From Candidatus Omnitrophota bacterium (GTDB lineage Bacteria > Omnitrophota > Gorgyraeia > 2-01-FULL-45-10), in NCBI GenBank assembly GCA_028716065.1, contig JAQUQN010000002.1:6485-70484 (forward strand): a stretch of DNA of 64,000 nt, given 5' to 3'. The notes below the pieces were generated by a model that searched no databases, had not been told where the DNA came from, and was given only the letters and a program-made list of their open reading frames with translations. This document shows positions 12,567 through 33,025 of this stretch, one piece after another; positions within the stretch are counted from its first letter, which is position 1, and each line of letters starts with the position of its first letter. Position numbers and translations under genes: made by a program.

Positions 12567-13280
12567 ATGCCTGAGAAGGAAAATAAAGGCGCTTCTTACG
12601 CCAGGCAACTGGAAGCGATCTCGAAGGTCAGCAAGACCATCACATCCGGACTATATCTGGAAGAGATCCTGAAACTCATCGTAACCGTGACGGCGGAGAT
12701 AATGAACTCAAAGATATGTTCACTGATGCTGTTAGATGAGAAGAGCAACATGCTCGTGCTCAAGGCAACGCAGTCGATGAGCGAGGTCTATAATAAGAAG
12801 TCCCCCTTGAAGGTAGGCGAGGGCATTGCGGGCAAGGTCGCGCAACAGAACAGCCCTATGGCAATATATGATATAGCCAAGGAGGCGGAATATAAAAATA
12901 AGGACATAGCAAAAAAAGAAGGATTAAAATCCCTTCTATCCGTCCCTCTGGCAGTAAAGGGCAGGGTAATAGGCGTACTCAATAATTACACTTCTCACCC
13001 TCACAAGTTCATTAAAAGCGAAGTCGAACTTCTGACCACGGTAGCAAACCAGGCTGCCATAGTGATAGAAAACGCGGCGCTGATGCTAAAAGCGAAGGTC
13101 ATGCAGGACGAACTTGAGACCAGAAAAACGGTCGAAAGGGCCAAGGGGGTACTGATGCGCACCCAGGGCCTTTCCGAAGAGGAGGCGTTCAGAAAGATAC
13201 AGAAACAGAGCATGGACATGAGAAAAACGATGCGCGAGATTGCCGAGGCCATCCTGCTTCTCGAGAAGATGAAATCCTGA
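12567..13280 (+). CDS. GAF-ANTAR RNA-binding antiterminator-type regulator (paralog 1)
   Basis: GAF-like N-terminal two-thirds (GEGIAGKV...VPLAVKGRVIGVLN). C-terminal ANTAR signature (ERAKGVLMRTQGLSEEEAFRKIQKQSMDMRKTMREIAEAI). Confidence 0.85.
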   Translation: MPEKENKGASYARQLEAISKVSKTITSGLYLEEILKLIVTVTAEIMNSKICSLMLLDEKSNMLVLKATQSMSEVYNKKSPLKVGEGIAGKVAQQNSPMAIYDIAKEAEYKNKDIAKKEGLKSLLSVPLAVKGRVIGVLNNYTSHPHKFIKSEVELLTTVANQAAIVIENAALMLKAKVMQDELETRKTVERAKGVLMRTQGLSEEEAFRKIQKQSMDMRKTMREIAEAILLLEKMKS

Positions 13281-13315
13281 CCCATGTTAGGCAATAAAAA
13301 GTTGCTACTTTATGA

Positions 13316-13343
13316 TTGACAGAATCTGAAAATATGGTATACT
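13316..13343 (+). promoter_or_regulatory. Sigma70-type promoter (TTGACA-N16-TATACT, TGn) for nadE leader
   Basis: Exact -35. Followed by two leader terminators. Confidence 0.6.
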
Positions 13344-13361
13344 TATTATGAAGAGACAAGG

Positions 13362-13398
13362 ATGTCTTTCGGCAAAGTATGCTGAAAGACATTTTTTA
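13362..13398 (+). terminator. nadE leader terminator 1
   Basis: 13-bp stem ATGTCTTTCGGCA / TGCTGAAAGACAT (one G.U), loop AAGTA, then TTTTTT. Confidence 0.75.
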
Positions 13399-13408
13399 TA
13401 GACTAGGG

Positions 13409-13448
13409 CGTCTAGATCCGATATTGCGGATATAGGCGTTTTTTGTTT
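13409..13448 (+). terminator. nadE leader terminator 2
   Basis: CGTCTA-g-ATCCG-atattg-CGGAT-a-TAGGCG (11 bp, one G.U), then TTTTTTGTTT. Ends 12 nt before the nadE ATG. Confidence 0.55.
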
Positions 13449-13460
13449 ATAGGCGGTTTT

Positions 13461-15143
13461 ATGAAGAGAAATATGCGTTTTGCGATAGCCCAGATCGATT
13501 GTTGTGTAGGCGATTTTGAAGGCAACCTTAAGAAGATGACGGCCTGCCTTCAACAAGCCAAGCAGACGGGGGTGGATATTATAGCCTTTCCGGAACTTGC
13601 TGTGACGGGCTATCCCCCTGAAGATCTCCTCCTCAAGGCCAGATTCATAGATGAAAATCTGGAGACCTTGAGAAAGTTATCCAGGTCCGTAGAAGACGTG
13701 GTGGCCGTTATAGGTTTTGTCGACAGGATAGGCTCGGATATATATAATGCGGCAGCGGTAATATATAAAGGCAAGGTGCTAGGAAAATACTATAAGATGT
13801 TCTTGCCCAATTACGGCGTATTCGATGAGCACAGGTATTTCAGGCAGGGTAAGGAACCAATAGTATTCAAGTGGGGCGATCTGGTATTCGGTGTCAATAT
13901 ATGCGAGGACATATGGCATGAGGATGGGCCCACCCGCGCCCAGGCTTCTAGAGGCGTGAAGGTCATAATAAATATCAACGCCTCGCCTTATTACAGCGGA
14001 AGGATCAGGGAAAGGGAGGAGGCCGTAAAAAGCCAGGCAATAGAGAATAAGGTCCATGTGGTTTACGCCAATCTCGTAGGAGGACAGGACGAACTGATCT
14101 TCGATGGCCAGAGCATGATAGTGGATAATAACGGAAAGATAATAAAAAAGGCCGAGGCCTTCAAGGAAGACTTGCTTATTGCTGACCTGGAGATACCGGA
14201 AAACTCTGAAAGATTGAAGGACCTTTATATTACTATCGGTGATAGCGTACCTCCAAAAGATAAGCCTGGTCTGGTCCGGAAAGAGGTAAAGCAGTTAGAC
14301 CCTGTTAGCGAGGTATATGAAGCGCTGGCCCTGGGATTGAGGGACTATGTGACCAAAAACGGTTTTAAAAAAGTGGTTCTCGGATTAAGCGGAGGGATAG
14401 ACTCGTCCCTCGTTGCCTCCATAGCAACGGATGCCATGGGCAAGGACAATGTTATCGGAATTTACATGCCTTCCCGCTACTCTTCATCCGATTCGGAAAA
14501 TGACGCCAAAAAACTGGCTGCGAATCTAGGCATACAGCTTTTGACCATAAGTATCGAGCAGATATTTAAAATATCCCTGATGTCGCTGGACCCTAAATTT
14601 TCCGGACTGGCCAAAGATTCGACCGAAGAGAACCTTCAGGCGCGTATAAGGGGAAACATCCTGATGGCACTTTCAAATAAATTCGGGTGGCTGGTATTGA
14701 CAACCGGAAATAAATCGGAGATGAGCACGGGTTATTCTACATTGTATGGCGACATGGCAGGAGGACTGGCCGTTATAAAGGATGTCCCCAAAACTTTAGT
14801 TTATAAACTGGTTAAATACAGGAATACGGTGAGCGCTGTGATACCCGAGTCGGTGATCAAAAAGGAGCCCACGGCTGAACTGAAACACGACCAAAAGGAT
14901 AGAGACACCCTGCCTCCCTACGATGTGCTGGATCCTATCCTGAAGGCATATGTGGAGGATGATAAGGGACTGAAGGAAATAGTGGCATTGGGTTTTAACA
15001 AGGATACCGTATGCAAAGTCCTGAACATGGTCGATAGAAGCGAATATAAACGCCGCCAATCGCCTCCGGGTTTGAAGATAACCCCTAGGGCGTTCGGCAG
15101 GGACAGGAGAATGCCGGTTACCTCTAGATATAAAGAATATTAA
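13461..15143 (+). CDS. nadE: Glutamine-dependent NAD+ synthetase (CN-hydrolase + NAD synthetase domains)
   Basis: N-terminal nitrilase-like domain (FPELAVTGYPPEDL, NICEDIW). C-terminal SGGIDSS PP-loop. Start chosen at ATG 13461. Confidence 0.9.
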   Translation: MKRNMRFAIAQIDCCVGDFEGNLKKMTACLQQAKQTGVDIIAFPELAVTGYPPEDLLLKARFIDENLETLRKLSRSVEDVVAVIGFVDRIGSDIYNAAAVIYKGKVLGKYYKMFLPNYGVFDEHRYFRQGKEPIVFKWGDLVFGVNICEDIWHEDGPTRAQASRGVKVIININASPYYSGRIREREEAVKSQAIENKVHVVYANLVGGQDELIFDGQSMIVDNNGKIIKKAEAFKEDLLIADLEIPENSERLKDLYITIGDSVPPKDKPGLVRKEVKQLDPVSEVYEALALGLRDYVTKNGFKKVVLGLSGGIDSSLVASIATDAMGKDNVIGIYMPSRYSSSDSENDAKKLAANLGIQLLTISIEQIFKISLMSLDPKFSGLAKDSTEENLQARIRGNILMALSNKFGWLVLTTGNKSEMSTGYSTLYGDMAGGLAVIKDVPKTLVYKLVKYRNTVSAVIPESVIKKEPTAELKHDQKDRDTLPPYDVLDPILKAYVEDDKGLKEIVALGFNKDTVCKVLNMVDRSEYKRRQSPPGLKITPRAFGRDRRMPVTSRYKEY

Positions 15144-15187: not shown

Positions 15188-15231
15188 AGCCCTTTATGCG
15201 CAAAGTAGGCGTGTAAAGGGCTTTAGTTTTT
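15188..15231 (+). terminator. nadE 3' terminator
   Basis: AGCCCTTTA / TAAAGGGCT, 9 bp, 17-nt loop, tail TTAGTTTTT. Confidence 0.65.
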
Positions 15232-15240: not shown

Positions 15241-15789
15241 GTGATAAGAATGAACTTAAATTTCGAAACGCTCGTCAATAGAATAACGCCCACGCTGAAA
15301 AGGATAACGCACCGGCTTAACGGCCATTTTACCTTTTTCGACGACGATGATCTATACCAGGAGGCCGTGACATATCTATGGCCGCTCTTCCAAAGAGGCA
15401 GACTTGGCGACAAGACGGACAGTTATATCCTACAGGGCTGTTATTTTCATCTTAAAAATTATATACGCACCTCGATGGACAAGGCCAAATTGATAAGCAT
15501 CTATAAGATAATAGATGCTGACGAAACCGAGCTTGGCGCGGTCCTGGCCGCGAAGGAGACGCCGGATCCGGAAAATCTGGAATACAAGATATTACTGAAA
15601 GAATCGGATAGGATGGGCCTGACGGAAAAGGAAAGGCGCGTTATATCATATTCATTGGAGGGACTTACTACAAGAGAGATAGGCGACCGCCTCGGTGTAT
15701 CTCACGTAATGGTGCTAAAGATAAAGGGAAAGATCAAACATAAGCTGCGTATTTTCAGAAATGAATACCGGAGAGGTTACCAAAATTAG
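15241..15789 (+). CDS. Sigma-70 family (ECF-like) RNA polymerase sigma factor
   Basis: Region-2-like DDLYQEAVTYLW. Region-4 HTH LTEKERRVISYSLEGLTTREIGDRLGVSHVMV. Confidence 0.7.
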   Translation: MIRMNLNFETLVNRITPTLKRITHRLNGHFTFFDDDDLYQEAVTYLWPLFQRGRLGDKTDSYILQGCYFHLKNYIRTSMDKAKLISIYKIIDADETELGAVLAAKETPDPENLEYKILLKESDRMGLTEKERRVISYSLEGLTTREIGDRLGVSHVMVLKIKGKIKHKLRIFRNEYRRGYQN

Positions 15790-15814
15790 GCATTTTTTAC
15801 TTGTAGAATCGTAG
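15774..15814 (+). promoter_or_regulatory. Conserved 41-nt box, copy 1 (upstream of porin-amtB-glnK)
   Basis: AGGTTACCAaAaTtAgGCATTTTTTACTTGTAgAaTcGTAG. 34/41 identical to 18917-18957. Contains a TAnAnT -10-like hexamer. Overlaps the sigma-factor stop codon. Confidence 0.6.
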
Positions 15815-15849
15815 CCTTGGCAACAAAGGCTAAAGACACATAGAAGTGT
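15812..15849 (+). promoter_or_regulatory. Tandem leader hairpins (amtB operon leader)
   Basis: TAGCCTT-GGCAACA-AAGGCTA and, 3 nt later, ACAC-ATAGAA-GTGT. The second has a hexaloop with A at position 1 and G at position 4, as in ANTAR target loops. Confidence 0.45.
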
Positions 15850-15859
15850 AAAAATGACG

Positions 15860-15896
15860 AAGGCGTTTGGAAGATAAAACGCCTTTTATTTTTTTC
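15860..15896 (+). terminator. amtB-operon leader terminator a
   Basis: AAGGCGTTT-ggaagata-AAACGCCTT then TTATTTTTTT. The 5' arm carries ACGAAGGCGTT. Confidence 0.75.
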
Positions 15897-15908
15897 ATAG
15901 TGGACAGG

Positions 15909-15956
15909 GACGTCTATTCTAATCCGAGGAGGAAAGGAGAGGCGTCTTTTGTTTTT
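15909..15956 (+). terminator. amtB-operon leader terminator b (weaker)
   Basis: GACGTCT / AGGCGTC (7 bp, one G.U), 24-nt loop, tail TTTTGTTTTT. Confidence 0.4.
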
Positions 15957-15975
15957 ATATTAAAGGAGATTTTTA

Positions 15976-17292
15976 ATGAGTCTTAATACAAAAAACATAC
16001 TTAGCGGTCTTGTGGTGTCTCTCTTTATAATCATCAGTTCCTCTACGGCGGTATTTGCGAATGAGATAGAGGAGCTAAGAAATGAGATAAAGATGATGAA
16101 GGAGAAGCTTAGCGCCATGGAGGCGAGATTGCAGCAATCCGAGGCAAGGGCCGCAGACGCCGAAAAACCAAAAACTGGACCGGAAGGGACTATTACGGAC
16201 GCCATCACCTCGATTACTAAGGAGATAGAGTTTCATGGTTTTGTAGACACTTCCTATATATTCAATACGAATACGCCTGTACCTCCCAACCCCAGGACTA
16301 ACAACCTCCGGGTATTCGATACGGACGCCAATGGATTCATGCTCAACATGGCACAATTGAGCTTTGAAAAGACCGTATCGAAAGAATCACCCCTGGGCTT
16401 CAGGGTAGACCTGGATTTCGGCCAGGACGCAAAACTCATACACTCAAACGGCCTTGGCAATCCCGGAGACGAATTCGACCTTGAGCAGGCATATGCACAG
16501 TTCTGCATCCCATTCAGCCTTCCTTTAATGGATACGTTGAGTTTCAAGTTCGGCAAATTCGTCACGTTAATGGGCGCGGAAGTCATTGAATCCGTCAATA
16601 ACTGGAATTTTTCCAGGTCGTACCTTTTCGGTTACGCGATACCGTTCACGCATACGGGCTTGAGGGCCTATTATAAACCCTTCGCGGACATACCGGTCGA
16701 ATCGTACATCGGCATAGTCAATGGATGGGATCAGGTGGACGACCTTAACCGGGCCAAGACGCTGGAAGCCCAGATAGCCGTAACACCTAACGATAAGCTA
16801 TCGTTTTCGTTGGGAGGCATGTTCGGTCCGGAGAGGGCGGATTCCAATAAGGATTTCCGGGACCTTATAGATTTCGTCATAACCTACCAGCCTCTTGATA
16901 AGTTGACTTTAAAAGCCAACTATGACTACGGGTGGGAGAGGAATGGCACGTCGGCCTTCGCCGGCTATACAGACGGCAAGGACGCATCCTGGGATGGTGT
17001 TGCCGGTTACGCCAAATATGATATTTTCGACTGGTGGTCGATCGCCGGCCGCGGTGAATTTTTCCATGACAGGAACGGCGTAAGGACAGGCGTCCTTACA
17101 AGTTCTACGATGCCCATCTCCGACCTGGCTGTCTGGGAATTCACACTTACCAATGAATTCAAGATATTTAAAAATTTCATAGCGAGATTTGAATATAGGT
17201 TCGACAAGGCAAGCGGTCAGGCCTTCACGAAAAACAAGACTACCGCTAATAATCAAAGCACTATAGCTGCTGAAGTAATAACCAAGTTTTAA
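15976..17292 (+). CDS. Outer-membrane beta-barrel porin with N-terminal coiled coil
   Basis: Signal peptide, heptad-like segment, alternating beta-strand pattern and a C-terminal Phe. Sits first in the operon with amtB-glnK. Confidence 0.6.
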   Translation: MSLNTKNILSGLVVSLFIIISSSTAVFANEIEELRNEIKMMKEKLSAMEARLQQSEARAADAEKPKTGPEGTITDAITSITKEIEFHGFVDTSYIFNTNTPVPPNPRTNNLRVFDTDANGFMLNMAQLSFEKTVSKESPLGFRVDLDFGQDAKLIHSNGLGNPGDEFDLEQAYAQFCIPFSLPLMDTLSFKFGKFVTLMGAEVIESVNNWNFSRSYLFGYAIPFTHTGLRAYYKPFADIPVESYIGIVNGWDQVDDLNRAKTLEAQIAVTPNDKLSFSLGGMFGPERADSNKDFRDLIDFVITYQPLDKLTLKANYDYGWERNGTSAFAGYTDGKDASWDGVAGYAKYDIFDWWSIAGRGEFFHDRNGVRTGVLTSSTMPISDLAVWEFTLTNEFKIFKNFIARFEYRFDKASGQAFTKNKTTANNQSTIAAEVITKF

Positions 17293-17314
17293 TATAAGGA
17301 AGGAGGAAAATGCG

Positions 17315-18550
17315 ATGATCAATTCCGGAGATACTGCGTGGATATTGATTTCGACGGCGCTCGTCATGATGATGACTGCGCCGGGTTTAGCGTTCTTTTA
17401 CGGTGGGCTGGTGCGGAGGAAAAACGTCCTCGCCACCATGATGCAGTCTTTCTTCGTACTGTGCCTGATCAGCATCCAGTGGATCTTGTGGGGCTATAGT
17501 CTTGCCTTTGGTCCCGATAAGGGCCATTTCATAGGTAGTCTCGCGTGGTTCGGTCTGAAAGGAGTGGGGATGGCGCCAAATCCTGATTACGCCGCGACCA
17601 TTCCGCATCTATTATTTATGGCATATCAGATGATGTTCGCAGTGATCACGCCCGCCCTGATAACAGGGGCTTTTGCTGAAAGAATGAAATTCTCCGCATA
17701 CGTCGTCTTTACCTTATTATGGGCAACTTTCGTATATGACCCCGTCTGCCATTGGGTATGGGGTACAGGCGGATGGTTAAAAGAGATGGGGGCCCTGGAC
17801 TTCGCAGGCGGCACAGTGGTCCATGTCTCATCAGGCATAGCTGCCCTCGTATGCGCGCTCGTATTAGGAAAACGGCGAGGATATGGCAATGAACCGATGC
17901 CTCCTCATAACTTGCCATTAACCGTCCTTGGGGCCGCGCTATTGTGGTTCGGATGGTTCGGATTTAATGCTGGTAGCGCATTAGGGGCCAACGAATTAGC
18001 CGTGACGGCTTTCATCGCTACAAATACGGCGGCTGCTGCGGCGGCACTTACATGGATGGCCATTGAATGGAACACTATCGGAAAGCCTACCATACTTGGC
18101 GGGGCTACGGGCGCTGTGGCGGGGCTTGTCGCAATAACGCCTGCCGCCGGCTTCGTCTCTCCGATATCCGCCATCTTCATAGGGATCATAGTAGGCCTGG
18201 TATGCTATACAGCTGTCGCCATCATTAAATTAAAACTTTCTTATGATGACAGTCTCGATGCTTTTGGCGTTCATGGTGTCGGCGGAGCAGTGGGTGCCCT
18301 GGTAACTGGGCTTTTCGCGCAGAAGATAATAAATCCCGGAGGGAGCAACGGGCTATTTTTCGGCAACCCTTCACAGCTAGCCACTCAAGCCATCGGTGTC
18401 ATAGCCACCATGGCATATTCGATCGCCGTAACATTCATCTTACTCAAAGTCCTTGATGCGGTCATGGGGCTGCGTGTTTCCGAAGAAGACGAGGTGGCCG
18501 GACTCGACATAACGCAACACGAGGAAAGCGCCTATACATTGTTAGACTAG
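17315..18550 (+). CDS. amtB: Ammonium transporter
   Basis: 411 aa polytopic protein with Amt signatures (DFAGGTVVHVSSG, FGVHGVGG). Confidence 0.95.
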   Translation: MINSGDTAWILISTALVMMMTAPGLAFFYGGLVRRKNVLATMMQSFFVLCLISIQWILWGYSLAFGPDKGHFIGSLAWFGLKGVGMAPNPDYAATIPHLLFMAYQMMFAVITPALITGAFAERMKFSAYVVFTLLWATFVYDPVCHWVWGTGGWLKEMGALDFAGGTVVHVSSGIAALVCALVLGKRRGYGNEPMPPHNLPLTVLGAALLWFGWFGFNAGSALGANELAVTAFIATNTAAAAAALTWMAIEWNTIGKPTILGGATGAVAGLVAITPAAGFVSPISAIFIGIIVGLVCYTAVAIIKLKLSYDDSLDAFGVHGVGGAVGALVTGLFAQKIINPGGSNGLFFGNPSQLATQAIGVIATMAYSIAVTFILLKVLDAVMGLRVSEEDEVAGLDITQHEESAYTLLD

Positions 18551-18562
18551 GAGGAGGTAGAA

Positions 18563-18904
18563 ATGAAACTGATAATCTCTATAATACAGCCGCATAGGCT
18601 TGAAAAGGTGCTGGAAGAATTGAACAAATCGGGAATCAGCCTGAGGACCGTATCCAACGTCCTGGGTTGCGGCAGGCAGAAAGGCCACACCGAGGTATAT
18701 CGCGGGAGGAAAGAGACGGGTAACCTTCTTAAAAAGGTACGCCTCGAAATTGCCGTCAATGAAGATTTCGTGGAACCTACGGTCAGGGCCATCATAAAAG
18801 GGGCAAAGACCGGAGAGATCGGAGACGGGAAGATATTTATAGCCGATCTGGCCGAATGCATAAGGATACGGACCGGGGAGAGGGGCGGCGAGGCGATAGG
18901 GTAA
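18563..18904 (+). CDS. glnK: P-II nitrogen regulatory protein
   Basis: 113 aa with T-loop [12 protein letters not shown] (Tyr51 retained) and DGKIFI. Directly downstream of amtB. Confidence 0.9.
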
Positions 18905-18916: not shown

Positions 18917-18957
18917 AGGTTACCAGAGTAACGCATTTTTTACTTGTATAGTTGTAG
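18917..18957 (+). promoter_or_regulatory. Conserved 41-nt box, copy 2 (upstream of glnA)
   Basis: AGGTTACCAgAgTaAcGCATTTTTTACTTGTAtAgTtGTAG, starting 13 nt after the glnK stop. Confidence 0.6.
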
Positions 18958-18967
18958 GGTATTAATA

Positions 18968-18983
18968 GGCACGCAGTAGTGCC
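18968..18983 (+). promoter_or_regulatory. Leader hairpin GGCAC-GCAGTA-GTGCC (glnA leader)
   Basis: 5-bp GC-rich stem with a hexaloop. Preceded by TA (TAGGCA word). Confidence 0.5.
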
Positions 18984-19010
18984 CCAAAAATAGGCAAACT
19001 TAAAGAACAG

Positions 19011-19066
19011 AGGCGTTCATTTTGGTCAGCGAGTGATTTGACCGAGTGAGCGCCTTTTTATCTTTT
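19011..19066 (+). terminator. glnA leader terminator
   Basis: 16-bp stem AGGCGTTCATTTTGGTC / GACCGAGTGAGCGCCT (three G.U, one bulge), then TTTTTATCTTTT. Ends 28 nt before the glnA ATG. Confidence 0.7.
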
Positions 19067-19094: not shown

Positions 19095-20603
19095 ATGAAA
19101 AAGAAGAAAGAGAAAAAACTAACAGACGTGAGGACAAAGAACCCGCTCATAAACGGCTCTTTCGATGAAAAGGCCGCCCGGGAAGTGATGAAGATGATCA
19201 AGGAGAAGAAGATACAGATCCTTGATCTTAAATTCAATGACCTGCCGGGCCTGTGGCAGCATTTCTCCATACCCGCATCGGAGCTTACGGAGATGGATGA
19301 CCTGACACGCTCTATCTGGGTGGACGGCATAGGGTTCGACGGCTCATCCATACGCGGCTTCCAGAAGATCCAGGAGTCGGACATGATCCTGATCCCTGAC
19401 CCTGCGACAGCCGTAATAGACCCTGTTTGCGAAGTGCCGACATTAAGCGTCATATGCGATATCTATGACCCGCTTACCAGAAAAGCATATACCCGAGACC
19501 CTAGATATATCGCGAAAAAGGCGGAAAAGTACCTGAAGGCATCCGGTATTGCCGACAATGTATACTTCGGGCCGGAGGCTGAGTTCTTTCTCTTCAATGA
19601 CGTCCGCTTTGACCAGACGGAAAACTCGGGATACTATTTTATAGACTCAGTCGAGGCTGACTGGAATACTGGAAAATCCGAAAATCCTAACCTGGGCTAT
19701 AAGATACGGTTCAAGGAAGGATATTTCCCAGTACCTCCGCACGACTCGCTACAGGACCTTCGCAGTAAGATGATCCTAAAGATGATAGAGGCCGGGATCC
19801 CCGTTGAAGTGCACCACCACGAAGTGGCCACAGCAGGACAATGCGAAATCGATATGAAGTTCGACACGTTGACAAAGATGGGCGATAACCTTTTGCTTTA
19901 CAAATATATCATAAAGAACATGGCCAGGAAGAACAACATGGTGGCCACGTTCATGCCCAAGCCGCTCTTTGCGGATAACGGCTCAGGCATGCACTGCCAC
20001 CAGAGCCTGTGGAAAAACGGCGTAAACCTTTTTTACGACAAGAACGGATACGCGCTCCTGAGCCAGACGGCCAAATACTACATAGGGGGGCTTTTAAAAC
20101 ACGCCAAGAGCCTCATGGCGTTCTGCGCGCCGACGACAAATTCTTACAAACGCCTGGTGCCGGGATACGAAGCGCCCGTAAACCTTGTTTACTCTGCCCG
20201 CAACCGGTCAGCGGCGGTAAGGATACCGATGTATTCCGACAGCCCCAAATCGAAAAGGATAGAGTTCAGGCCGCCCGATCCGTCCTGCAACGCCTACATA
20301 GCGTTCAGCGCAATGTTGATGGCGGGCCTTGACGGGATACAGCATAAGATCGATCCCGGCGAACCCGCAGACCAGGATCTATTCGAATTGAATGAGGAAG
20401 AACTGGCGAAGATCCCAACCGTGCCGTCATCTCTGCGCAGGGCTATAGATGCCCTGGAAGAAGACCATGACTACCTTCTCAAGGGCGGCGTCTTCACAAA
20501 AGACGTTATCGATGTATGGCTCGAATATAAACGCAAAAGAGAAATAGACACGGTGAGGATGCGCCCGCATCCATACGAGTTTTATCTATATTTTGATATT
20601 TAA
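19095..20603 (+). CDS. glnA: Glutamine synthetase type I
   Basis: GSI motifs ([32 protein letters not shown]). The adenylylation-site Tyr is replaced (DLFEL). Strong RBS aaaggagg. Confidence 0.95.
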
Positions 20604-20668: not shown

Positions 20669-20854
20669 ATGGATGACAACCTACCCATTTACAGAACGAT
20701 CATAGCGCAGGTTGAAAAACCGCTCATAGAGATGGCCCTGGAGAGAACGAGCGGCAATCAGATCAGGGCCGCCGAACTGTTAGGGATCAATCGTAATACG
20801 ATCCGCACCAAGATAAAAAAACTCGGCATCGACGTCAAGAGATGGAAGGTATGA
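20669..20854 (+). CDS. Stand-alone Fis/NtrC-C-terminal-type HTH protein (61 aa)
   Basis: [26 protein letters not shown] is an HTH_8-type motif. Its stop overlaps the gltB start (ATGA). Confidence 0.65.
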
Positions 20855-23800
20855 ACAAAATGAGACACAACCACTTGCCCGAAAGACAGGGCCTCTATGA
20901 TCCGCGCTTCGAGCATGACTCATGCGGCGTCGGGTTCGTCTGTAATATAGACGGAGTGCGGTCGCACGATGCCGTTCAAAAAGGCCTTGAAGTGCTGAAA
21001 CGGCTCTCGCATCGCGGAGCGACCGGTTCGGACCCGAAAACCGGAGACGGCGCAGGCATACTACTGCAGATCCCGCATGAGTTCCTGCTCAAGGCCTGCG
21101 GGGAAGAAGGTATGGAATTACCGGACGAGGGGAGCTATGGCACCGGCATCGTTTTCCTGCCGACCGATGAGAGAGAAAGAAGGTTCTGCAAGGCCGCCTT
21201 CGCGAAAATAGCTAAGGAGGAGGGACAGGCTCTTTTAGGATGGCGCAAAGTCCCGGTAGACGATTCGGATATAGGCAGAATCGCGAGGGAGACCGAGCCG
21301 GTGATAGAACAAGTCTTCATCGCTAAAAATAGAAGGCTGAAGGATAGGCTGGCTTTCGAACGCAGACTGTATGTTATCAGAAAAGGGGTCGAGAATCTCA
21401 TAAGAACGACCGGCTTAAGGCAGAAGGCCTTCTTCTATATCACCAATATATCCAATCGTACCATGTCGTATAAAGGGCTTCTCATGCCCTATCAATTAGA
21501 AAAATTCTTCATCGATCTAAAAGATAATTCGCTAAAAAGCTCTTTATGCCTTGTTCATTCCCGGTACAGCACGAATACTTTCCCGACATGGGATCTGTCA
21601 CAGCCGTTCAGGTTCCTTGCGCATAATGGCGAGATAAACACATTGCGGGGGAACATAAATTGGATGAGGGCCAGGGAAAAATTACTGAAGAGTAATCTAT
21701 TCGGGCAGGAGATCAAAAATATCATGCCTGTAATCGTTCCGAACGGAAGCGATTCGGCGGCCATAGACAACGTGCTTGAACTTCTGGCACTATCGGGCAG
21801 GTCGCTACCCCATGCCATGGCAATGCTCATACCTTCAGCGTGGGAAGGCGATGGCCTGATGGATGATGAACTTAGAGACTTTTACAGATACCACGCCTGC
21901 ATGATGGAGCCATGGGACGGGCCTGCGGCTATCGCCTTTACGGATGGCACGAGGATAGGGGCAGTGCTGGACAGGAACGGGTTGAGGCCCGCACGCTACA
22001 TGATAACTAAAGGCGGGCTTGTAGTTATGGCATCCGAAGTGGGGGTTCTCGACATAAGACCGGAGGATATATCGGTATCGGGCAGGCTGGAACCCGGTAA
22101 GACGTTCTACATCGATACGGAACTAAAACGTGTGATCGACGATGTGGAGATCAAGAGATCTCTTTCCATGGCACAGCCTTACGGCGACTGGATTAAAAAG
22201 AAGCTGGTCTCTCTCAATGATCTGCCGGAGAGAGGCAATGAACCAAAGCATCCCGAAGATGTCATTACATCCTTAAAGGCGTTTGGTTACACGCGCGAAG
22301 ACCTCAAGACCATACTTAAACCGATGGCGGAGAAAGGTGCGGAACCGATCGGCTCCATGGGAAACGATACGCCCCATGCCGTCCTATCGGCCATGCCTCA
22401 GATACTCTTCAACTACTTCAAACAATTATTCGCCCAGGTAACAAACCCTGCCATAGATCCGATAAGGGAAGAGCTGGTAATGAGCCTGACGGCACTTGTC
22501 GGGCCCGAAAAAGGACTGCTCGATGAGACACCGGAACACTGTCACAAACTCGAGGTGGCCCGTCCCATTCTCTCGGACGGCGAGTTATCAAAAATACGCG
22601 ATATCGCTATAAACGGGTTCAGGACCAAAACCATATCCATATTATTCGACCCTCTTCGAGAAAAAAGTTTCATCGATACGATAGACCACATATGTGAAGA
22701 GTCATCCAGGGCCATAAACGAGGGTTATTCATTCATTATTTTAAGCGATAGGGGCGCGGATATTTCCAAGGCCGCTCTTCCGAGCCTTTTGGCAGTAGGC
22801 GCCGTGCATCATCACCTCGTCAGAAAATCTTCGAGAACCCAGATAGGCATAATCCTCGAGAGCGCCGAACCCAGAGAGGTTCACCATTTTGCGCTCCTTT
22901 TCGGCTATGGGGCGGACTGCATAAACCCTTACCTCGCGTATGAGGCCCTCGGCTATCTGGTAAGAGAAAAAGAACTGGAGATGGATTACGAGAAGGCTCT
23001 CGAAAATTACAGAAAGGCCCTGGAGAGCGGCATATTGAAGGTGCTCTCAAAGATGGGCATATCGACATTGCAGAGCTACCGCGGCGCTCAGATATTTGAG
23101 GCGCTCGGATTGAGCGATGCCCTCATAGAAAAATGTTTTACAGGCACCGTTTCCAGAATAGGCGGTATAGGCTTCGACACAATAGCGAAGGAGTATATCG
23201 CCAGGCACTCTCAAGTCTATCCTGTAAGCGCGGCGTCCCAACCATACCTGCCTACCGGAGGCGTATACCAGTGGAAGAGAGACGGAGAGATCCACCTCTG
23301 GAACCCTGACTCCATAGCTGCGTTGCAGGATGCCGCCAGGACCAACGATAATAAAAAGTACTCGGAATTCGCTGGATTGATAAACGACCAATCGAAAGGC
23401 CCCTGCACGTTGCGAGGGCTCTTAAAATTCAGAAAAGCCAGGCCCATCCCGATAGAGGAGGTGGAGCCCTCGAAAGAGATCGTAAAAAGATTCGCGACCG
23501 GCGCCATGAGTTTCGGTTCCATAAGCAAGAGCGCTCACGAAGCCATAGCCATAGCCATGAACATGCTCGGAGGCAGGTCAAACACCGGGGAAGGCGGAGA
23601 GGATCCGGCGCGATTCAATCCATTGCCGAACGGTGATTCTGCGAGAAGCGCCATAAAGCAGGTCGCTTCCGGCAGGTTCGGCGTTACCACCAATTATCTC
23701 GTCAATGCGGATGAACTGCAGATAAAGATAGCCCAGGGGGCAAAACCCGGAGAAGGCGGGCAGCTGCCCGGCCACAAAGTGAGCGCCATCATAGCGCGGA

Positions 23801-25389
23801 CCAGGTATACCACGCAAGGCGTCACCCTCATATCGCCGCCTCCGCACCACGACATATATTCCATCGAGGACCTTGCGCAGCTCATATTTGACCTGAAGAA
23901 CGTCAATCCTAAAGCCCGAATAAGCGTTAAGCTTGTATCGGAGATAGGGGTGGGCACGGTCGCCGCGGGTGTCGCCAAAGGTCATGCCGACATGATACTG
24001 ATCTCGGGCGGAGACGGGGGAACCGGCGCATCGCCTCTCAGTTCCATAAAACACGCGGGCCTCCCGTGGGAACTCGGCCTTTCGGAGACACATCAAACTC
24101 TGGTCCTGAACGACCTGCGCAGCAGGGTCAGGCTGCAGACGGACGGACAGATGCGCACGGGCCGCGACATCGCCATCGCCGCCTTGCTGGGAGCGGAAGA
24201 GTTTGGCTTCTCTACCGCGGTACTGATAGTCCTCGGATGTGTGATGTTGAGGCATTGCCACCTGAATAATTGTTCCGTGGGAGTCGCCACGCAGGACGCC
24301 ATCCTGCAGAATAGGTTCAGGGGAAGGCCTGAATATATAATCAACTACTTCTATTTCGTCGCGCAAGAACTGAGAGAGATAATGGCCGGGCTGGGTATTC
24401 GCCGCGTTGACGACATGATCGGCAGGACGGATCTATTGCTGGTCGATAAGACGGCCTTGACCTGGAAGACCAAAGGGCTGGATTTTTCAAGAATGCTGTA
24501 CAAGGCCGGAACGAAGAGGCCGGACACCAGATACCATGTTATGCCTCAGAAGCCTGCAATGCACGGGGAATTGGATTCAGAACTCATCAAACTCTCAAAA
24601 GATGCGATAGGCAATAGAGCACCTGTAAAACTCTCCATGGGCATAAAAAATAGCAATAGGACTGCCGGCGCCATGTTGAGCGGAGAGGTGTGCAGGGTAC
24701 ATGGGGAAGGCGGCCTGCCTGATGATACCGTATACTGCAAATTCAAGGGTGTAGCCGGCCAGAGCTTCGGCGCCTTTCTCTCCAAAGGAATAACATTTGA
24801 ACTCGAAGGCATGGCGAACGATTATGTGGGCAAGGGTATCTCCGGCGGGAAGATCATAATATATCCGGACAGGAGAGCGGGTTATGACGCCAGCAGGGGC
24901 ATCATCATCGGAAATACGACATTTTACGGCGCCATAAGCGGTGAGGCATATATAAGGGGGACCGCGGGAGAAAGGTTTTGCATAAGGAATTCGGGGCTGA
25001 ATGCCGTCGTAGAAGGCACCGGTGACCATGGATGCGAATACATGACCGGAGGAAGGGTTGTCATTCTGGGAAAAACTGGAAGGAACTTTGCCGCTGGGAT
25101 GTCTGGCGGCATCGCGTATGTTTACGATCCGAAGAGAGATTTTAAAGATAGGTGCAACATGGAGATGGTAACCCTGGAAAGCATAAATTCCGACGATGAG
25201 ATGACGATCGGCGAGCTGCTATCCAACCACCACAGGTTCACCGGCAGTACATTGGCCAGAGAGATACTGGACGACCTTAAATCCAGGTTAAAGAGCTTTA
25301 TCAAGGTCATGCCGATAGAATACAAGCGTATCCTGGAAAGCAAAGAGCTAGAGGAAGATTTGAATCTCGTAGAGGTGTCAGATGGGTGA
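20851..25389 (+). CDS. gltB: Glutamate synthase large subunit
   Basis: About 1510 aa. N-terminal Ntn Cys (HDSCGVGF), FMN domain and C-terminal GXGXG domain. Start set at the ATG of the ATGA overlap. Confidence 0.95.
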
Positions 25390-26827
25390 TCCGAGAGGAT
25401 TTTTGAAAGTAAAGCGGGAAGGCTCTCCATATAGACCCGTATGTGAACGCGTTAAGGATTACAAAGAAGTATCGGCGCCGAGAGACGACGAACGTTCCAA
25501 GGAACAGTCTTCGCGTTGCATGGATTGCGGAACGCCCTTCTGCCACTGGGCCTGCCCGGTCGGTAATTATATCCCGGAATGGAACGACGCGATGTTCCAC
25601 GGCCACTGGAAAAAGGCCATAGACCTACTGCATGCGACGAACAATTTTCCGGAGATAACGGGGCGGTTGTGCCCGGCGATGTGCGAATACGCCTGCGTAT
25701 TGGGTATAAACGACGACCCTGTTACGGTAAGAGAGAACGAACTGGCCATCATAGAGCATGGGTTTAGACAGGGCATCATAAAGGCGTCTGGGCCCGCGAA
25801 GCGCAGCGGAAAACGTATCGCCATAATAGGCTCGGGCCCTGCAGGGCTGGCCTGCGCCGACCAATTAAATAAAGCGGGACACGAGGTGACGGTCTATGAA
25901 AAAGACGACAGGGCCGGAGGAATATTACGATACGGCATACCGGACTTTAAACTGGAAAAATGGGTCCTGGACAGGCGGCTCGATATTTTAAAAAAAGAAG
26001 GCGTAAAACTCATAACCTCGGTCAATGTTGGAACCGATATCACCATTTCCGAACTGCGGAAAGGTTTTGACGCCGTCTGCCTGGCCGGAGGCAGCCGCGT
26101 TCCGAGAGACCTGAAGATCGAAGGAAGGGAATTGAAAGGTATACATTTCGCCATGGACTTCCTGGTGCAGGCGAACAGGATGGTAGCTGGAGAAAAGATA
26201 CTGGAAGATAAATTCATAGACGCTAAGGGCAAAAGGATAGTCGTAATAGGCGGAGGCGATACGGGATCTGACTGCGTCGGTGTATCGCACCGTCACGGCG
26301 CAAGCTGCGTAGTCCAGATCGAACTGTTACCTCAGCCGTCAGAATCCCGCACCGGGGAATATAACTGGCCGAAATATCCGCTTCTCCTCAAGAGATCCTC
26401 CAGCCATGAAGAAGGGGGCGAGCGCAACTGGTCGATACTCACGAAGCGGCTTATCGGAGTAGACGGACGCGTGAAAAGATTGTCCTGCGTCCGCGTCAGT
26501 TTTGACCAAAAAGACGAGCGAGGCCGTCCGCTCATGAGGGAACTACCCGGAAGCGAGTTCGAGATAGAGGCCGATCTGGTAATATTGGCTATGGGTTTTG
26601 TACACCCGGAGCACGACATCCTGCTCGATGCGCTCGGCGTAAAACTGGATCCGTACGGAAATGTGGCCACGGATGACAAGTACATGACTTCGGCCAAAGG
26701 CGTATTCTCGGCCGGCGACATGAGAAGGGGGCAATCCCTGATCGTCTGGGCCATATCGGAAGGCCGCCGCTCAGCCCACGCCATCGATAAATACCTTATG
26801 GGTTCAAGCAACCTGCCGGTAGTCTAA
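25382..26827 (+). CDS. gltD: Glutamate synthase small subunit (NADPH)
   Basis: Cys clusters (CMDCGTPFC, CPAMCEYAC) and the dinucleotide fold IAIIGSGPAGLACA. Confidence 0.95.
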   Translation: MGDPRGFLKVKREGSPYRPVCERVKDYKEVSAPRDDERSKEQSSRCMDCGTPFCHWACPVGNYIPEWNDAMFHGHWKKAIDLLHATNNFPEITGRLCPAMCEYACVLGINDDPVTVRENELAIIEHGFRQGIIKASGPAKRSGKRIAIIGSGPAGLACADQLNKAGHEVTVYEKDDRAGGILRYGIPDFKLEKWVLDRRLDILKKEGVKLITSVNVGTDITISELRKGFDAVCLAGGSRVPRDLKIEGRELKGIHFAMDFLVQANRMVAGEKILEDKFIDAKGKRIVVIGGGDTGSDCVGVSHRHGASCVVQIELLPQPSESRTGEYNWPKYPLLLKRSSSHEEGGERNWSILTKRLIGVDGRVKRLSCVRVSFDQKDERGRPLMRELPGSEFEIEADLVILAMGFVHPEHDILLDALGVKLDPYGNVATDDKYMTSAKGVFSAGDMRRGQSLIVWAISEGRRSAHAIDKYLMGSSNLPVV

Positions 26828-28250: not shown

Positions 28251-29078
28251 ATGAAAATAAAACGGTTGGTTTTAATGCGCCAAATATCACAGACCGTTTT
28301 TTTCTTTTTATTTATCTACATCATCTGGTCGGCCACTTACCAATTAAAAGGGCCTCTGTCTCCCAGGTTAATTTTTGACGCCGATCCTCTCCTGACATTA
28401 TCCGCATCCATAGGCAGCCGCGTGATCATCCCCGGCATCTCATTGTCCCTCATCATCTTATTTATGACAGCTGTCCTCGGAAGATTCTTCTGCGGCTGGA
28501 TATGCCCCCTGGGTTCGACCATGGACCTGATCGCATCCTTTAAAAAAAGAAAGGCCGGTATTCCAGATTCGAAGAATAAAAAATTGAGAAGGCCGAAATT
28601 TTACATATTCGGCCTGATAGGCCTGTCGGCCGTGATGGGTACTCAGATAGCATGGTTGCTTGACCCGCTGGTGATCACAGAGCGTTTCCTGTCACTGACC
28701 ATCAGGTCCGCCTGCTCTTTACTGGGGAAGGGGGCTAATTTCTCGCCATACTCCATCATAACGCTTATATTCTTCGCGGTTATTTGCTCAATGGCGATAT
28801 TCTTAAGCCGTTTCTGGTGCCGGGCCATCTGCCCGTTAGGAGCGTTATATGCGGTCATGGCGCGTTTTTCCATATTAAGGCGTATTGTGGTGGAATGCAA
28901 GGATTGCGGCAACTGTAAAAGTTCGTGCAGGATGGGTGCTATAAAGGATGACGCCAGTTATGTAAAGTCAGAATGCATCCTTTGCATGGACTGTATCTAT
29001 GACTGCTCTTCCAACTCGACCAGCTTCGGCTGGGGCGATAAAAAGACCCGCAATTTTCTACTTGACAAAACACACTAA
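28251..29078 (+). CDS. Polytopic 4Fe-4S binding membrane protein (NapH/MauN-like)
   Basis: Repeated CxxxCP(L)G motifs (FCGWICPLG, FWCRAICPLG) plus two ferredoxin motifs (CKDCGNCKSSC, CILCMDCIYDC). Confidence 0.7.
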   Translation: MKIKRLVLMRQISQTVFFFLFIYIIWSATYQLKGPLSPRLIFDADPLLTLSASIGSRVIIPGISLSLIILFMTAVLGRFFCGWICPLGSTMDLIASFKKRKAGIPDSKNKKLRRPKFYIFGLIGLSAVMGTQIAWLLDPLVITERFLSLTIRSACSLLGKGANFSPYSIITLIFFAVICSMAIFLSRFWCRAICPLGALYAVMARFSILRRIVVECKDCGNCKSSCRMGAIKDDASYVKSECILCMDCIYDCSSNSTSFGWGDKKTRNFLLDKTH

Positions 29079-29090
29079 TGTTGCTATATT
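29062..29090 (+). promoter_or_regulatory. Sigma70-type promoter (TTGACA-N17-TATATT) for nfnAB-gdhA leader
   Basis: The -35 lies inside the 3' end of the upstream CDS. Followed by a leader terminator. Confidence 0.6.
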
Positions 29091-29119
29091 ATATCATCAA
29101 TATTATGTTAAAAGGGGAC

Positions 29120-29159
29120 AAAGACGTCCGCTAAAAAAAGCGGCGTCTTTTTTTATTTT
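29120..29159 (+). terminator. nfnAB-gdhA leader terminator
   Basis: AAAGACG-t-CCGC-taaaaaaa-GCGG-CGTCTTT (11 bp, one bulge), then TTTTATTTT. About 25 nt after the promoter -10. Confidence 0.75.
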
Positions 29160-29199
29160 CCAATGCATAAAAAATAGGCAACTGCCATTTCTTTAAAAA

Positions 29200-30026
29200 A
29201 TGAAGATACTGAAAAAAGAGATACTTGCCGATCACGAAGGGACGAGGCTGGTTAGGATGGAGCTCCACTCCCCGCTAATTGCCAAAAAGGCGTCAGCGGG
29301 CCAATTTGTCGTCCTCATGGCCGATGAGAAAGGCGAGAGGATACCTCTTACCATAGTTGAGGCCGACAGGGAAAAGGGGTCCATAGCCATCATCTTCCAG
29401 GAGGTGGGCCATACTACAAAACTCCTGGGAAAGATGGAAGCGGGCAAATCGCTATATTCCTTAACGGGGCCCCTGGGACATGCGACAGAGATAAGGAAAT
29501 TCGGGAAGGTTATCCTCGTGGGAGGAGGGGTCGGCATAGCAGAGATTTACCCCGTGGCAAGGGCCTTAAAAGCAAGCGGCAACCGTGTCGTGACCATACT
29601 CGGCGCCAGGACAAAAGCGTTATTAATACTGGAAAAAGAGCTCAAAGAGACATCCGATGAAATCTACATAACTACCGATGACGGATCTTACGGGTTAAAG
29701 GGTTTCACGACATCGGTACTGGAGGGCCTCCTCTCTAAAGGAAATTACGATCTCGTCTATTCAGTAGGTCCTATTCCAATGATGAAGAACTCTTCTTCAG
29801 TGACCAGGCGTTTTAATGTCAGGACGCTCGTCTCGCTGAATGCCCTGATGGTGGACGCAACGGGCATGTGCGGGTGCTGCAGGGTCGCAGTCGGGGGTAA
29901 GGTAAAGTTCAGCTGCGTTGACGGGCCGGAATTTGACGCGCACCAGGTCGACTGGGAGGAACTGGATAAGAGAAACAGGGTATACACGGACAAAGAAAAA
30001 CATATCTGCAAACTGAATAATTTAAA

Positions 30027-30030
<4 letters not shown>
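29200..30030 (+). CDS. nfnA: NfnA / SudB-type ferredoxin-NADP+ oxidoreductase subunit alpha (FAD, 2Fe-2S)
   Basis: PyrK-like fold with DATGMCGCCRV...FSCVDGPEF. Overlaps the nfnB start by 4 nt. Confidence 0.8.
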
Positions 30031-32800
<2,770 letters not shown>

Positions 32801-32823
32801 CGGAGGGCGGTAAAAAATAATAC

Positions 32824-32852
32824 TTGACAAAATAGACAAATCGTGGTATAAA
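32824..32852 (+). promoter_or_regulatory. Sigma70-type promoter (TTGACA-N17-TATAAA, TGn) for GAF-ANTAR-2 leader
   Basis: Lies 24 nt after the gdhA stop. Followed by three terminators. Confidence 0.6.
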
Positions 32853-32869
32853 TAGTTGATTAAAAATTA

Positions 32870-32886
32870 GGCACAAAGTCAGTGCC
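32870..32886 (+). promoter_or_regulatory. Leader hairpin GGCAC-AAAGTCA-GTGCC (GAF-ANTAR-2 leader)
   Basis: Same stem as 18968-18983 and a related loop (AGT-A). Preceded by TTA (TAGGCA word). Confidence 0.5.
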
Positions 32887-32902
32887 ATAATGAGAAAGGA
32901 CG

Positions 32903-32933
32903 AAGGCGTTCGAAAGAACGCCTTTCTCTTTTT
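32903..32933 (+). terminator. GAF-ANTAR-2 leader terminator 1 (may also end the gdhA transcript)
   Basis: AAGGCGTTC-GAAA-GAACGCCTT then TCTCTTTTT. The 5' arm carries ACGAAGGCGTT. Confidence 0.65.
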
Positions 32934-33018: not shown

Positions 33019-33025
33019 ATGAACG

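Follow-up and report, generated by a model that had tools for sequence, protein, structure and literature searches.

A promoter-like box and a predicted two-step ANTAR-type attenuator upstream of the porin-amtB-glnK operon in Candidatus Omnitrophota

Introduction

In a metagenome-assembled genome (MAG) of Candidatus Omnitrophota, the operon encoding a porin, AmtB and GlnK is preceded by a leader that contains two terminators in a row, which raises the question how transcription can reach the operon. The leader (positions 15790–15975, plus strand) is part of a stretch of 64,000 nucleotides, here called the window, and lies inside a large nitrogen-assimilation cluster. A sequence-only reading of this DNA had pointed to a conserved box, two hairpins, two terminators, a ribosome-binding site (RBS) and the porin ATG, and each of these elements was recovered in place. 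Its attribution of the leader to porin-amtB-glnK is correct as well, since porin, AmtB and GlnK follow.

According to the analysis described here, the region probably consists of a promoter and a two-step ANTAR-type transcription attenuator that together gate porin-amtB-glnK. Most likely, the two tandem terminators would be overridden by GAF-ANTAR proteins that are encoded nearby. In literature, an ANTAR target is defined as two short hairpins with hexaloops that have a G at position 4 (G4), the second of which, P2, overlaps a terminator (PMC3369931; PMC8164766). The linker between the two stem-loops measures 2–25 nt (PMC8164766). As ANTAR control of nitrogen genes is already established, the core of the proposed mechanism is no surprise.

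The leader of porin-amtB-glnK

The 170-nt leader folds at −51.2 kcal/mol compared to −32.9 kcal/mol for shuffled sequences (z = −5.0), and none of 200 shuffles folds as well. The first hairpin of the conserved structure, P1 (15836–15849, plus strand, like all leader elements below), is ACAC-AUAGAA-GUGU. Its hexaloop has an A at position 1 (A1) and G4, and the hairpin is supported by folding, alignment and covariation. The sequence-only reading had called it ANTAR-like, a view that is supported here, and P1 is the predicted recruitment hairpin. A linker of 6 nt, which is within the published ANTAR range, separates it from P2a (15856–15867, GAC-GAAGGC-GUU), which has a 3-bp stem and a hexaloop with G1 and G4, and which is indicated by a covariance model, the alignment and a motif count. 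Bases 15859–15867 are common to P2a and terminator a, with the part from the loop G4 to the 3′ arm serving as the 5′ arm of the terminator. Terminator a (15859–15896, stem 15859–15886) pairs GAAGGCGUUU with AAACGCCUUU, followed by UAUUUUUUU, its T-run extending to 15896; it is found by a terminator scan and by RNAalifold and has an energy of −9.3 kcal/mol. P2a is the predicted antiterminator hairpin, and it and terminator a exclude each other. P1, a short linker and a P2 that excludes a terminator make up the textbook ANTAR arrangement (PMC3369931; PMC8164766).

Downstream of terminator a, a second hairpin of this type is found. P2b (15899–15918, AGUGGAC-AGGGAC-GUCUAUU) has a hexaloop with A1 and G4, is supported by fold energies and the motif count, and shares bases 15909–15918 with terminator b. 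The latter (15909–15956, GACGUCU...AGGCGUC plus UUUUGUUUUU) appears in the minimum free energy (MFE) fold, its stem spanning 15909–15946 and being followed by TTTTGTTTTT up to 15956, with an energy of −15.6 kcal/mol. P2b is the predicted single-hexaloop antiterminator of terminator b, without a P1 of its own. Both terminators consist of a GC-rich stem-loop followed by a U-run, as intrinsic terminators do. The three loops AUAGAA (P1), GAAGGC (P2a) and AGGGAC (P2b) all contain G4; A1 is present in P1 and P2b and replaced by G1 in P2a, so that the A1 expected in both loops of an ANTAR site is found in one loop of the first pair. The RBS AAAGGAG (15963–15969) and the porin ATG at 15976 complete the leader (RBS to ATG, 15963–15978).

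These results change the earlier picture at several points. The presence of two terminators stands, as it follows from the terminator scan and the MFE fold; their ranking does not, as terminator b had been taken for the weaker one, which by energy it is not. The sequence-only reading had further stated that the hairpins do not overlap a terminator, leaving the mechanism unclear. It had missed P2a (15856–15867), the partner of P1 that shares bases with terminator a, as well as P2b (15899–15918). Its general ANTAR idea was right, while the upstream hairpin pair on which it had been built was not. This pair consists of P1 and of P0 (15812–15832, TAGCCUU-GGCAACA-AAGGCUA, from the MFE fold), which ends 3 nt before P1 and has a 7-nt loop without G4. 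Since both occur in the MFE fold, 3 nt apart, P0 and P1 might be thought to act as a functional tandem pair without any terminator overlap. This is very improbable: an insert of any kind at the place of P0 is found in only about 8 of 35 orthologous leaders, and P0 is outside the RNAalifold consensus structure of a plain MAFFT alignment, and a conserved, terminator-overlapping P2 exists 6 nt after P1. P0 as an ANTAR hairpin was rejected because it is not conserved among orthologous leaders. P0 is a predicted optional 5′-terminal hairpin outside the conserved ANTAR motif, and it may act as a 5′ stabilizer.

Another explanation holds that both terminators are constitutive and end the upstream sigma gene, with the promoter of the operon located further downstream. 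Terminator a indeed lies about 70 nt past the sigma stop codon. This explanation is hardly credible, as box, hairpins and terminators of this kind are also found before glnA, gltB and other genes that have no sigma gene upstream, and as the sequence of P1 and P2, not just their structure, is kept across at least 120 loci. Moreover, there is no room for a promoter because only 19 nt separate the U-run of terminator b from the start codon.

Conservation of the hairpins in related leaders

Related leaders were collected by one metagenome scan with GGTTACC-N13-TTTTACTTGTA, in which at least 120 stretches yielded 127 distinct leaders. Hairpins were counted in 122 leaders, namely those with a length of 120 nt or more, with a search pattern that demands G4 and leaves position 1 free. 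Among the matches listed, a P1-like hexaloop hairpin is present in 101 of the 122 leaders and a P2-like one in 103. Of the 101 P1 loops, 78 open with A and 20 with G. The P2 loop (103 cases) starts with A in 64 and with G in 35, has A at position 3 in 73 and G at position 5 in 87. About 120 leaders contain 129 P2-like hairpins, and behind 111 of these lies a terminator whose 5′ arm is made of the loop G4 to the 3′ arm; the terminators that overlap P2-like hairpins have a mean energy of −17.5 kcal/mol. Two linker classes occur in the family, with about 12 and about 30 nt between the loops. In the orthologous porin leaders of loci L002 and L003, ACAC-AU(A/U)GAA-GUGU is kept and the TAGCCUU hairpin is not, and a second hexaloop hairpin lies 6 nt after the P1-type hairpin.

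To this can be added an alignment (A4) of 35 orthologous amtB-type leaders, made by plain MAFFT without structural input and folded by RNAalifold. The predicted consensus consists of exactly P1 and terminator a, with compensatory changes in 7 of 12 pairs; terminator a corresponds to the helix of columns 63–70 with 91–98, which includes such changes. The G4 columns are conserved. P1 is paired in 96% of the cells of this alignment (96–98% overall) and three of its four pairs change on both sides. The three pairs of P2a are C-G in 35/35 leaders, A-U in 33/35 and A-U, G-U or G-C in 32/35 (100, 94, and 91%, respectively). Taken together, the structure of P1 plus P2a is 85% paired compared to 22–51% for slid controls, and its covariation score was reached by none of 500 shuffles. 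The GAAC/GUUC and AGAC/GUCU classes of P2 also co-vary, classes that were chosen by pattern. A covariance model (R1), built from the 30 seeds of alignment A1, scores window positions 15832–15873 at 44.3 bits (E = 7.5e-9) and finds 84 matches in the fetched loci. Some of these lie beyond the reach of exact-box retrieval, behind the variants AGTTACC, TGTTACC and GATTACC or behind TTGACA-N17-TATAAT promoters. R1 has no match in the proteobacterial porin loci L004 and L005, which, as two outgroups only, are weak evidence.

The P2 hairpins fall into two classes, i.e., a GUU-type (RAC...GUU) and a GUC-type (GAC...GUC, more fully GAC-nnnGRY-GUC). The GUU-type is nearly the sole class in glnA (20/25) and fis-gltB (9/10) leaders, while 35 of 45 amtB-type leaders have a GUC-type module. 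In the 16 leaders with both classes, the GUU-type always comes first, as it does in the window.

The hairpins could also be the binding site of a non-ANTAR protein or form a small-molecule riboswitch, the ANTAR genes being nearby by coincidence. The P2a loop without A1 and the lack of a match to an Rfam or published ANTAR model would agree with this, and ANTAR binding is itself a prediction. Such an explanation is improbable for several reasons. The published ANTAR definition (PMC3369931; PMC8164766) describes what is seen here, two short hairpins in which the hexaloops and their G4 are conserved and a P2 that overlaps a terminator, and the P2 loop AnnGGC equals a validated GnfR site, which is described below. 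The window contains two ANTAR genes, one of which is itself located behind such a leader. No larger conserved fold fit for a ligand pocket was found in the A4 consensus. An Rfam search of the leader with E up to 10 gave matches to PyrR, BTnc060, and snoRNAs only, all at chance level; a PyrR identity was rejected at 18 bits vs a gathering score of 54 (E = 6.7).

Some related leaders contain additional sequences. Some amtB leaders have an insertion behind terminator a, the structured conserved element GAGCACAUAAUUUAUGGAGCGAUAGCGAACAUAAAUUAUAAGUGCGAAAAAUCC...GCGGGAUAAA (L055 1756–1845; also L023, L030, L089, and L123). It is not in the window and has no Rfam match; a further regulatory RNA and a mobile repeat are both conceivable. 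Short repeats occur between two terminator modules, namely GCCCAGCAAGGGCACACCCAACAAUCCGAUAUGUUGGGGUG and CGCCACAAACCGUGGCGAAUCCGCC...GGCGGAAUUU (loci L030, L086, where they occur twice, and L105; L088 and L103), and these look like small hairpin repeats of the repetitive extragenic palindrome (REP) or miniature inverted-repeat transposable element (MITE) kind. For GAGCACATAATTTATGGAGCG..., found in some amtB leaders of other loci, a glutamine riboswitch was considered and dropped, as it has no Rfam support. A group I intron match in Rfam (71.8 bits, L086 3279–3485) has no connection with the leader; it was obtained on a contig of a related Omnitrophota.

The box upstream of the leader

A conserved box of 41 nt (15774–15814) precedes the hairpins, with a strictly conserved core of 31 nt (15775–15805, plus strand), GGTTACCA-N11-TTTTTTACTTGTA, that is promoter-like in its copies, logo and position. 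A second copy is found upstream of glnA (18917–18948), with 28 of 32 bases identical, and the window contains exactly two occurrences of the core GGTTACC-N12-TTTTTACTTGTA compared to an expectation of 0.03. In the metagenome scan there are at least 120 copies, nearly all 5′ of nitrogen-assimilation genes with the same leader. In the loci listed, the downstream genes are glnA (23), amtB/glnK (21), fis-gltB (9), porin (8) and GAF-ANTAR (2). Further genes behind a box encode type III glutamine synthetase (GS-III), a permease-PII fusion and hybrid-cluster protein (hcp). In locus L031 (2161–4026), the box controls an amino-acid permease with a C-terminal PII domain (Pfam AA_permease and P-II), and a box plus ANTAR leader precedes hybrid-cluster (Prismane) and type III glutamine synthetase genes in two other Omnitrophota contigs, L003 (4322–5850) and L014 (4018–6326).

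The sequence-only reading had treated the box as part of the RNA leader. Its overlap with the stop codon of the upstream sigma ORF, its position, its orientation and its replacement by sigma-70 promoters elsewhere speak for a promoter-like element instead. The logo reads GGTTACCA(A/G)AA, seven variable bases and TTTTTTACTTGTA, with an A-rich stretch upstream and conserved parts that are asymmetric. The box is always located 5′ of the hairpins, in one orientation and at a fixed distance from them, the first hairpin arm starting 6–7 nt after the box in the shortest leaders. Other ANTAR leaders have TTGACA-N17-TATAAT at the equivalent position. From these features, the box is best regarded as a DNA element that would behave as the promoter of a nitrogen regulon, with a predicted transcription start at about 15810–15813.

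The first half of the box (15775–15789, GGT TAC CAA AAT TAG) corresponds to the final codons of the sigma gene, G-Y-Q-N-stop. G-Y-Q-N is the C-terminal consensus of 40 sigma homologues, and it is encoded by the GGT TAC CAA AAT of the box in the window and in about one third of the loci. It appears that the promoter element constrains the C-terminus of the protein, or the reverse.

Two known promoter types were rejected. A sigma-54 (−24/−12) reading fails on the GG-N10-GC spacing (TGGCAC-N5-TTGCW). A housekeeping −35/−10 reading would require TTACCA-N17-CTTGTA, which has no −10 match, and good TTGACA-N17-TATAAT promoters are present elsewhere in the window.

The adjacent putative sigma factor

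The gene that ends inside the box (15241–15789, plus strand) encodes an ECF-type sigma-like protein of 182 aa, identical to an NCBI Omnitrophica entry. TIGR02937, the model of the ECF superfamily, matches the ORF over its full length (E = 7.6e-11), with 41.9 bits vs a cutoff of 42.9. Pfam recognizes region 4 only and misses region 2 because of its divergence. When 40 homologues were combined into a profile and run against PDB, sigma factors were matched, including region 2.1. The best fold matches of the AlphaFold model (pLDDT 73.5) are the ECF sigmas SigL, SigH, SigK, SigE, and SigW, with a probability of about 1 and low TM-scores. The ORF has 1324 homologues, and all named ones are 'sigma-70 family' proteins of Omnitrophota.

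The box is found within −40 to +60 nt of the 3′ end of the gene in 45 of 64 sigma homologues in the fetched loci. The upstream neighbor of these homologues is usually nadE, often at 0–14 nt, or a GAF-ANTAR gene, and downstream are amtB, porin or glnK. Because the gene ends inside the box and the synteny with the box is conserved, the divergent ECF-type sigma factor is the likely reader of the box.

Promoters of ECF (group 4) sigma factors are bipartite, e.g., GGAACTT-N16-TCnaA for sigma-E and GGAAY-N16-19-GTT for SigH. The protein resembles these sigma factors in its length of about 180 aa and its probable two-domain sigma2/sigma4 organization. Likewise, the −35-like GGTTAC of the box resembles GGAAC, and the spacing to the second element and to the start of the hairpins fits. 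It differs from them in that its region 2 escapes Pfam, in that no adjacent anti-sigma gene was seen, and in a regulon that consists of cytoplasmic nitrogen assimilation, while the −10-like TACTTGTA lacks the CGT or GTT motif.

Alternatively, a DNA-binding activator or repressor could use the box as its operator, and the promoter would be one of the housekeeping sigma factor, with TAGAAT (15804–15809) as the −10 element. A candidate binder is the Fis/NtrC-type helix-turn-helix (HTH) protein encoded at 20669–20854. The sigma factor scores 1 bit under the TIGR02937 cutoff and lacks a visible anti-sigma gene, which would suit this alternative, as would the fact that TAGAAT in the amtB leader and TATAGT in the glnA leader directly follow the box. 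The Fis-type gene is kept in the regulon in 28 loci, and the glnA copy of the box contains the palindrome GTTAC-N4-GTAAC. Nevertheless, the operator explanation is rather unlikely. Conservation is weak at positions 32–35, which follow the box, and TAnnnT is not a general feature; where the leader is shortest, the hairpin arm at 6–7 nt is too near for a −10 element that begins at the end of the box. The palindrome is not family-wide, positions 12–18 being variable, and a CRP/NtcA-type palindrome was rejected on the same grounds, as no copy but that of glnA contains it. Against an operator speak also the asymmetry of the conserved parts and their single orientation, and the synteny of sigma gene and box in 45 of 64 cases points to the sigma factor.

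Between nadE and the sigma gene lies a long terminator hairpin (15188–15222) with the loop AAAGUAG, which has A1 and G4 and resembles the AAAGU(C/A)N heptaloops in the leaders of GAF-ANTAR2 and nadE. No convincing P2 was found at this terminator.

The GAF-ANTAR regulators and other leaders of the window

Two GAF-ANTAR genes are present in the window and 20 more in related loci. GAF-ANTAR 1 (12567–13280, plus strand; Pfam ANTAR 3.5e-22, GAF_2 1.9e-21) is a candidate antiterminator. Its paralog GAF-ANTAR 2 has an ORF at 32997–33776 (plus strand; Pfam ANTAR 7e-20 and a strong GAF match), of which the annotated start at 32997 is probably wrong and the true ATG probably at 33081. The ANTAR region aligns with Rv1626 (1.4e-11), NasR, EutV, and AmiR in PDB. 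Tyr164 of EutV, the aromatic residue that stacks on G4 (PMC8934654), is Phe here, and K143 and K147 of EutV are K and R. The GAF domain is closest to those of PtsP (EI-Ntr; 3trc and 3ci6) and NifA-like Nlh1 (4g3k). GAF domains of the PtsP and NifA type respond to glutamine and 2-oxoglutarate. Because of this resemblance, 2-oxoglutarate or glutamine is proposed as the signal, which gives a starting point for finding the ligand. The GAF-ANTAR subclass has no characterized member (PMC3369931; PMC7496416), and the present analysis supplies it with more than 100 natural putative targets.

The leader of GAF-ANTAR2 (32820–33080) combines a TTGACA-N17-TATAAA promoter with a hairpin whose loop has 7 nt (GGCAC-AAAGUCA-GUGCC) and with two modules of P2 plus terminator in tandem, at 32899 and 33022. 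Such a leader points to autoregulation of the gene.

In the window, 11 occurrences of the motif RAC-NNNGRC-GTY were counted compared to 2.2 expected, a number that none of 100 shuffles reached. Eight of the 11 are located in plus-strand leaders with terminators, i.e., those of nadE (13401), porin-amtB-glnK (15856 and 15903), glnA (19006), the glutamate dehydrogenase (GDH) operon (29117), GAF-ANTAR 2 (32899 and 33022, its tandem modules) and pyrG (35617). For the P1 pattern CACRNNGNNGTG by itself, the window shows no enrichment (2 vs 1.3 expected), and only its position is informative. Altogether, the window holds at least nine terminator modules. The sister leader of glnA (18918–19066, plus strand) has the box at 18918–18948, P1 (GGCAC-GCAGUA-GUGCC) at 18968–18983, P2 (GAAC-AGAGGC-GUUC) at 19005–19018 and the terminator at 19009–19057, followed by a U-run. 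In the leaders of nadE (13300–13443), the GDH operon (29060–29160) and pyrG (35556–35680), a sigma-70-type promoter is followed by P2-like hexaloop hairpins that overlap terminators. The putative ANTAR regulon thereby reaches the synthesis of NAD and of CTP, two pathways in which glutamine is used.

The operon behind the leader (15976–18904, plus strand) encodes a BBP2-type porin (15976–17292), with orthologs of 66–73% identity in three Omnitrophota MAGs, AmtB (17315–18550) and GlnK/PII (18563–18904). Around it, the cluster comprises glutamine-dependent NAD synthase (nadE, 13443–15143), GlnA (19095–20603), a Fis-type HTH protein of 61 aa (20669–20854), GltB and GltD (20842–26827), the GDH operon with DHODB-like, GltD-like and GDH genes (29200–32800), a Glu-synthase-domain protein (33801–35393) and PyrG (35681–37294). 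The Fis-type protein is a stand-alone HTH_8 protein encoded directly upstream of gltB; the pair is kept in 28 related loci, often with its own box and ANTAR leader. This makes it a candidate DNA-binding partner of the regulon.

Proposed mechanism

The elements described above suggest the following course of events. Transcription would start a few bases after the box, which is probably read by the ECF-type sigma factor. The nascent RNA would form P1 and then, from the same bases, either P2a or terminator a. An active GAF-ANTAR protein, whose GAF domain of the PtsP/NifA type would sense nitrogen status as 2-oxoglutarate or glutamine, may bind the hexaloops and stabilize the weak 3-bp P2a, thereby occupying the 5′ arm of terminator a and allowing read-through. 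About 40 nt downstream, P2b and terminator b would present the same choice, and only transcripts that pass both terminators would reach porin-amtB-glnK.

Several points weigh against this scheme. All evidence is computational, and the organism is known from an uncultured MAG. P2a has only 3 bp, one of which is G-U, and its loop opens with G instead of the canonical A. The support for P2 is largely sequence conservation, which the terminator arm alone could explain, and because its two inner pairs are invariant, these say nothing on pairing. Several of the counts derive from sets that were chosen by box or hairpin patterns, and in some columns the choice itself determines the result. A P1 is missing from module b, yet EutV requires both hairpins in vivo (PMC3369931; PMC8934654). 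In a search of the whole window, no Rfam family reached its gathering score, and whether Rfam has an ANTAR model was not established. As for the promoter, the box is unlike known ECF −10 motifs, and synteny is the only evidence that pairs it with the sigma factor. Within the window, the sigma gene has no anti-sigma gene among its neighbors, and neither a promoter for its own control nor a box was found upstream of it.

On a broader scale, a tentative model, somewhat less likely than not, is that nitrogen assimilation in Omnitrophota is governed by a phylum-specific two-tier circuit that replaces NtrC/sigma-54, GlnR/TnrA or NtcA. In the first tier, a dedicated ECF-type sigma factor would act on GGTTACCA-N11-T6ACTTGTA, a promoter whose −35-like half would coincide with the final codons of the sigma gene itself (G-Y-Q-N-stop). 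In the second, one-component GAF-ANTAR antiterminators would follow, which could also be used on single-hexaloop modules. GUU-type modules would serve all gene classes and GUC-type modules would be specific for amtB; possibly these are read by the two paralogs, resulting in an AND gate for two signals at the amtB operon. As nadE, often with the sigma gene behind it, is under an ANTAR leader, the circuit may also be a feed-forward loop.

For Omnitrophota, a large uncultured phylum, this amounts to a concrete regulatory map of nitrogen assimilation, with promoter, sigma factor, antiterminators and terminators. It also suggests that an ECF-type sigma factor governs core nitrogen metabolism, which would be unusual if true.

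Comparison with known systems

The closest characterized system is GnfK/GnfR of Geobacter sulfurreducens. GnfR is an ANTAR response regulator, and its experimentally validated site CAGGCAANGGCGCC overlaps the terminators of glnK, amtB, and nif (PMC2995071; Ueki and Lovley, 2010). This site is a GGC-AAnGGC-GCC hexaloop hairpin, with a loop that is nearly the P2 loop found here (AnAGGC; AnnGGC). In both systems an ANTAR protein relieves, or is here predicted to relieve, premature terminators before glnK, amtB, and other nitrogen genes, and in both there are two tiers, i.e., nitrogen-specific activation of transcription followed by antitermination. In Geobacter, the GnfL/GnfM two-component system forms the upper tier, a place that would be taken here by the promoter box with the ECF-type sigma factor as its probable reader. 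In addition, GnfR is a phosphorylated receiver-ANTAR protein compared to the one-component GAF-ANTAR proteins of the window, and the tandem terminators and the separate P1 are not shared with Geobacter, which belongs to another phylum.

EutV and the eut leaders of Enterococcus faecalis provide a second point of reference (PMC3369931, Ramesh, 2012; PMC8934654, Walshe, 2022). These have in common with the leaders described here the two short A1/G4 hexaloop hairpins with a short linker, the overlap of P2 with an intrinsic terminator, the organization of several leaders into a regulon and the aromatic residue that stacks on G4. Ethanolamine genes are the targets of EutV, a receiver-ANTAR protein that requires both hairpins in vivo. 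In contrast to eut, P2a opens with G, only one hexaloop is present in module b and in some complete leaders, and there are two linker length classes of about 12 and about 30 nt between the loops. With its single hexaloop, module b agrees with the minimal ANTAR motif in its revised form (PMC8934654). Natural single-hexaloop attenuators bear on the question that comes from the EutV structures, namely why two hairpins are needed.

In Desulfotomaculum acetoxidans, 13 ANTAR sites are predicted in six transcription units (PMC3369931; Ramesh, 2012), and sites have been predicted before PII, amtB, and glutamine/glutamate synthase genes in many bacteria (PMC3369931). Numerous sites in one genome, the presence of several modules per leader and the nitrogen genes downstream are comparable to what is seen in the window. 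The regulons of Ramesh (2012) were found in Firmicutes and Proteobacteria by means of the published covariance model, and do not include Omnitrophota, GAF-ANTAR proteins or a promoter box. A literature search yielded no paper linking ANTAR to Omnitrophota. NasR at nasF, NasT and AmiR are likewise similar, being one-component or protein-partnered ANTAR regulators of nitrogen-source genes with a hexaloop hairpin upstream of a terminator. Their sensors are NIT, a receiver with NasS, and a pseudo-receiver with AmiC, respectively, compared to GAF here, and each controls one operon, while the window points to a global assimilation regulon. Altogether, the system differs from the known ones by its GAF-ANTAR subclass, the frequent G1 in P2, the single-hexaloop modules and the classes of tandem modules, as well as by its coupling to a phylum-specific promoter and an ECF-type sigma factor.

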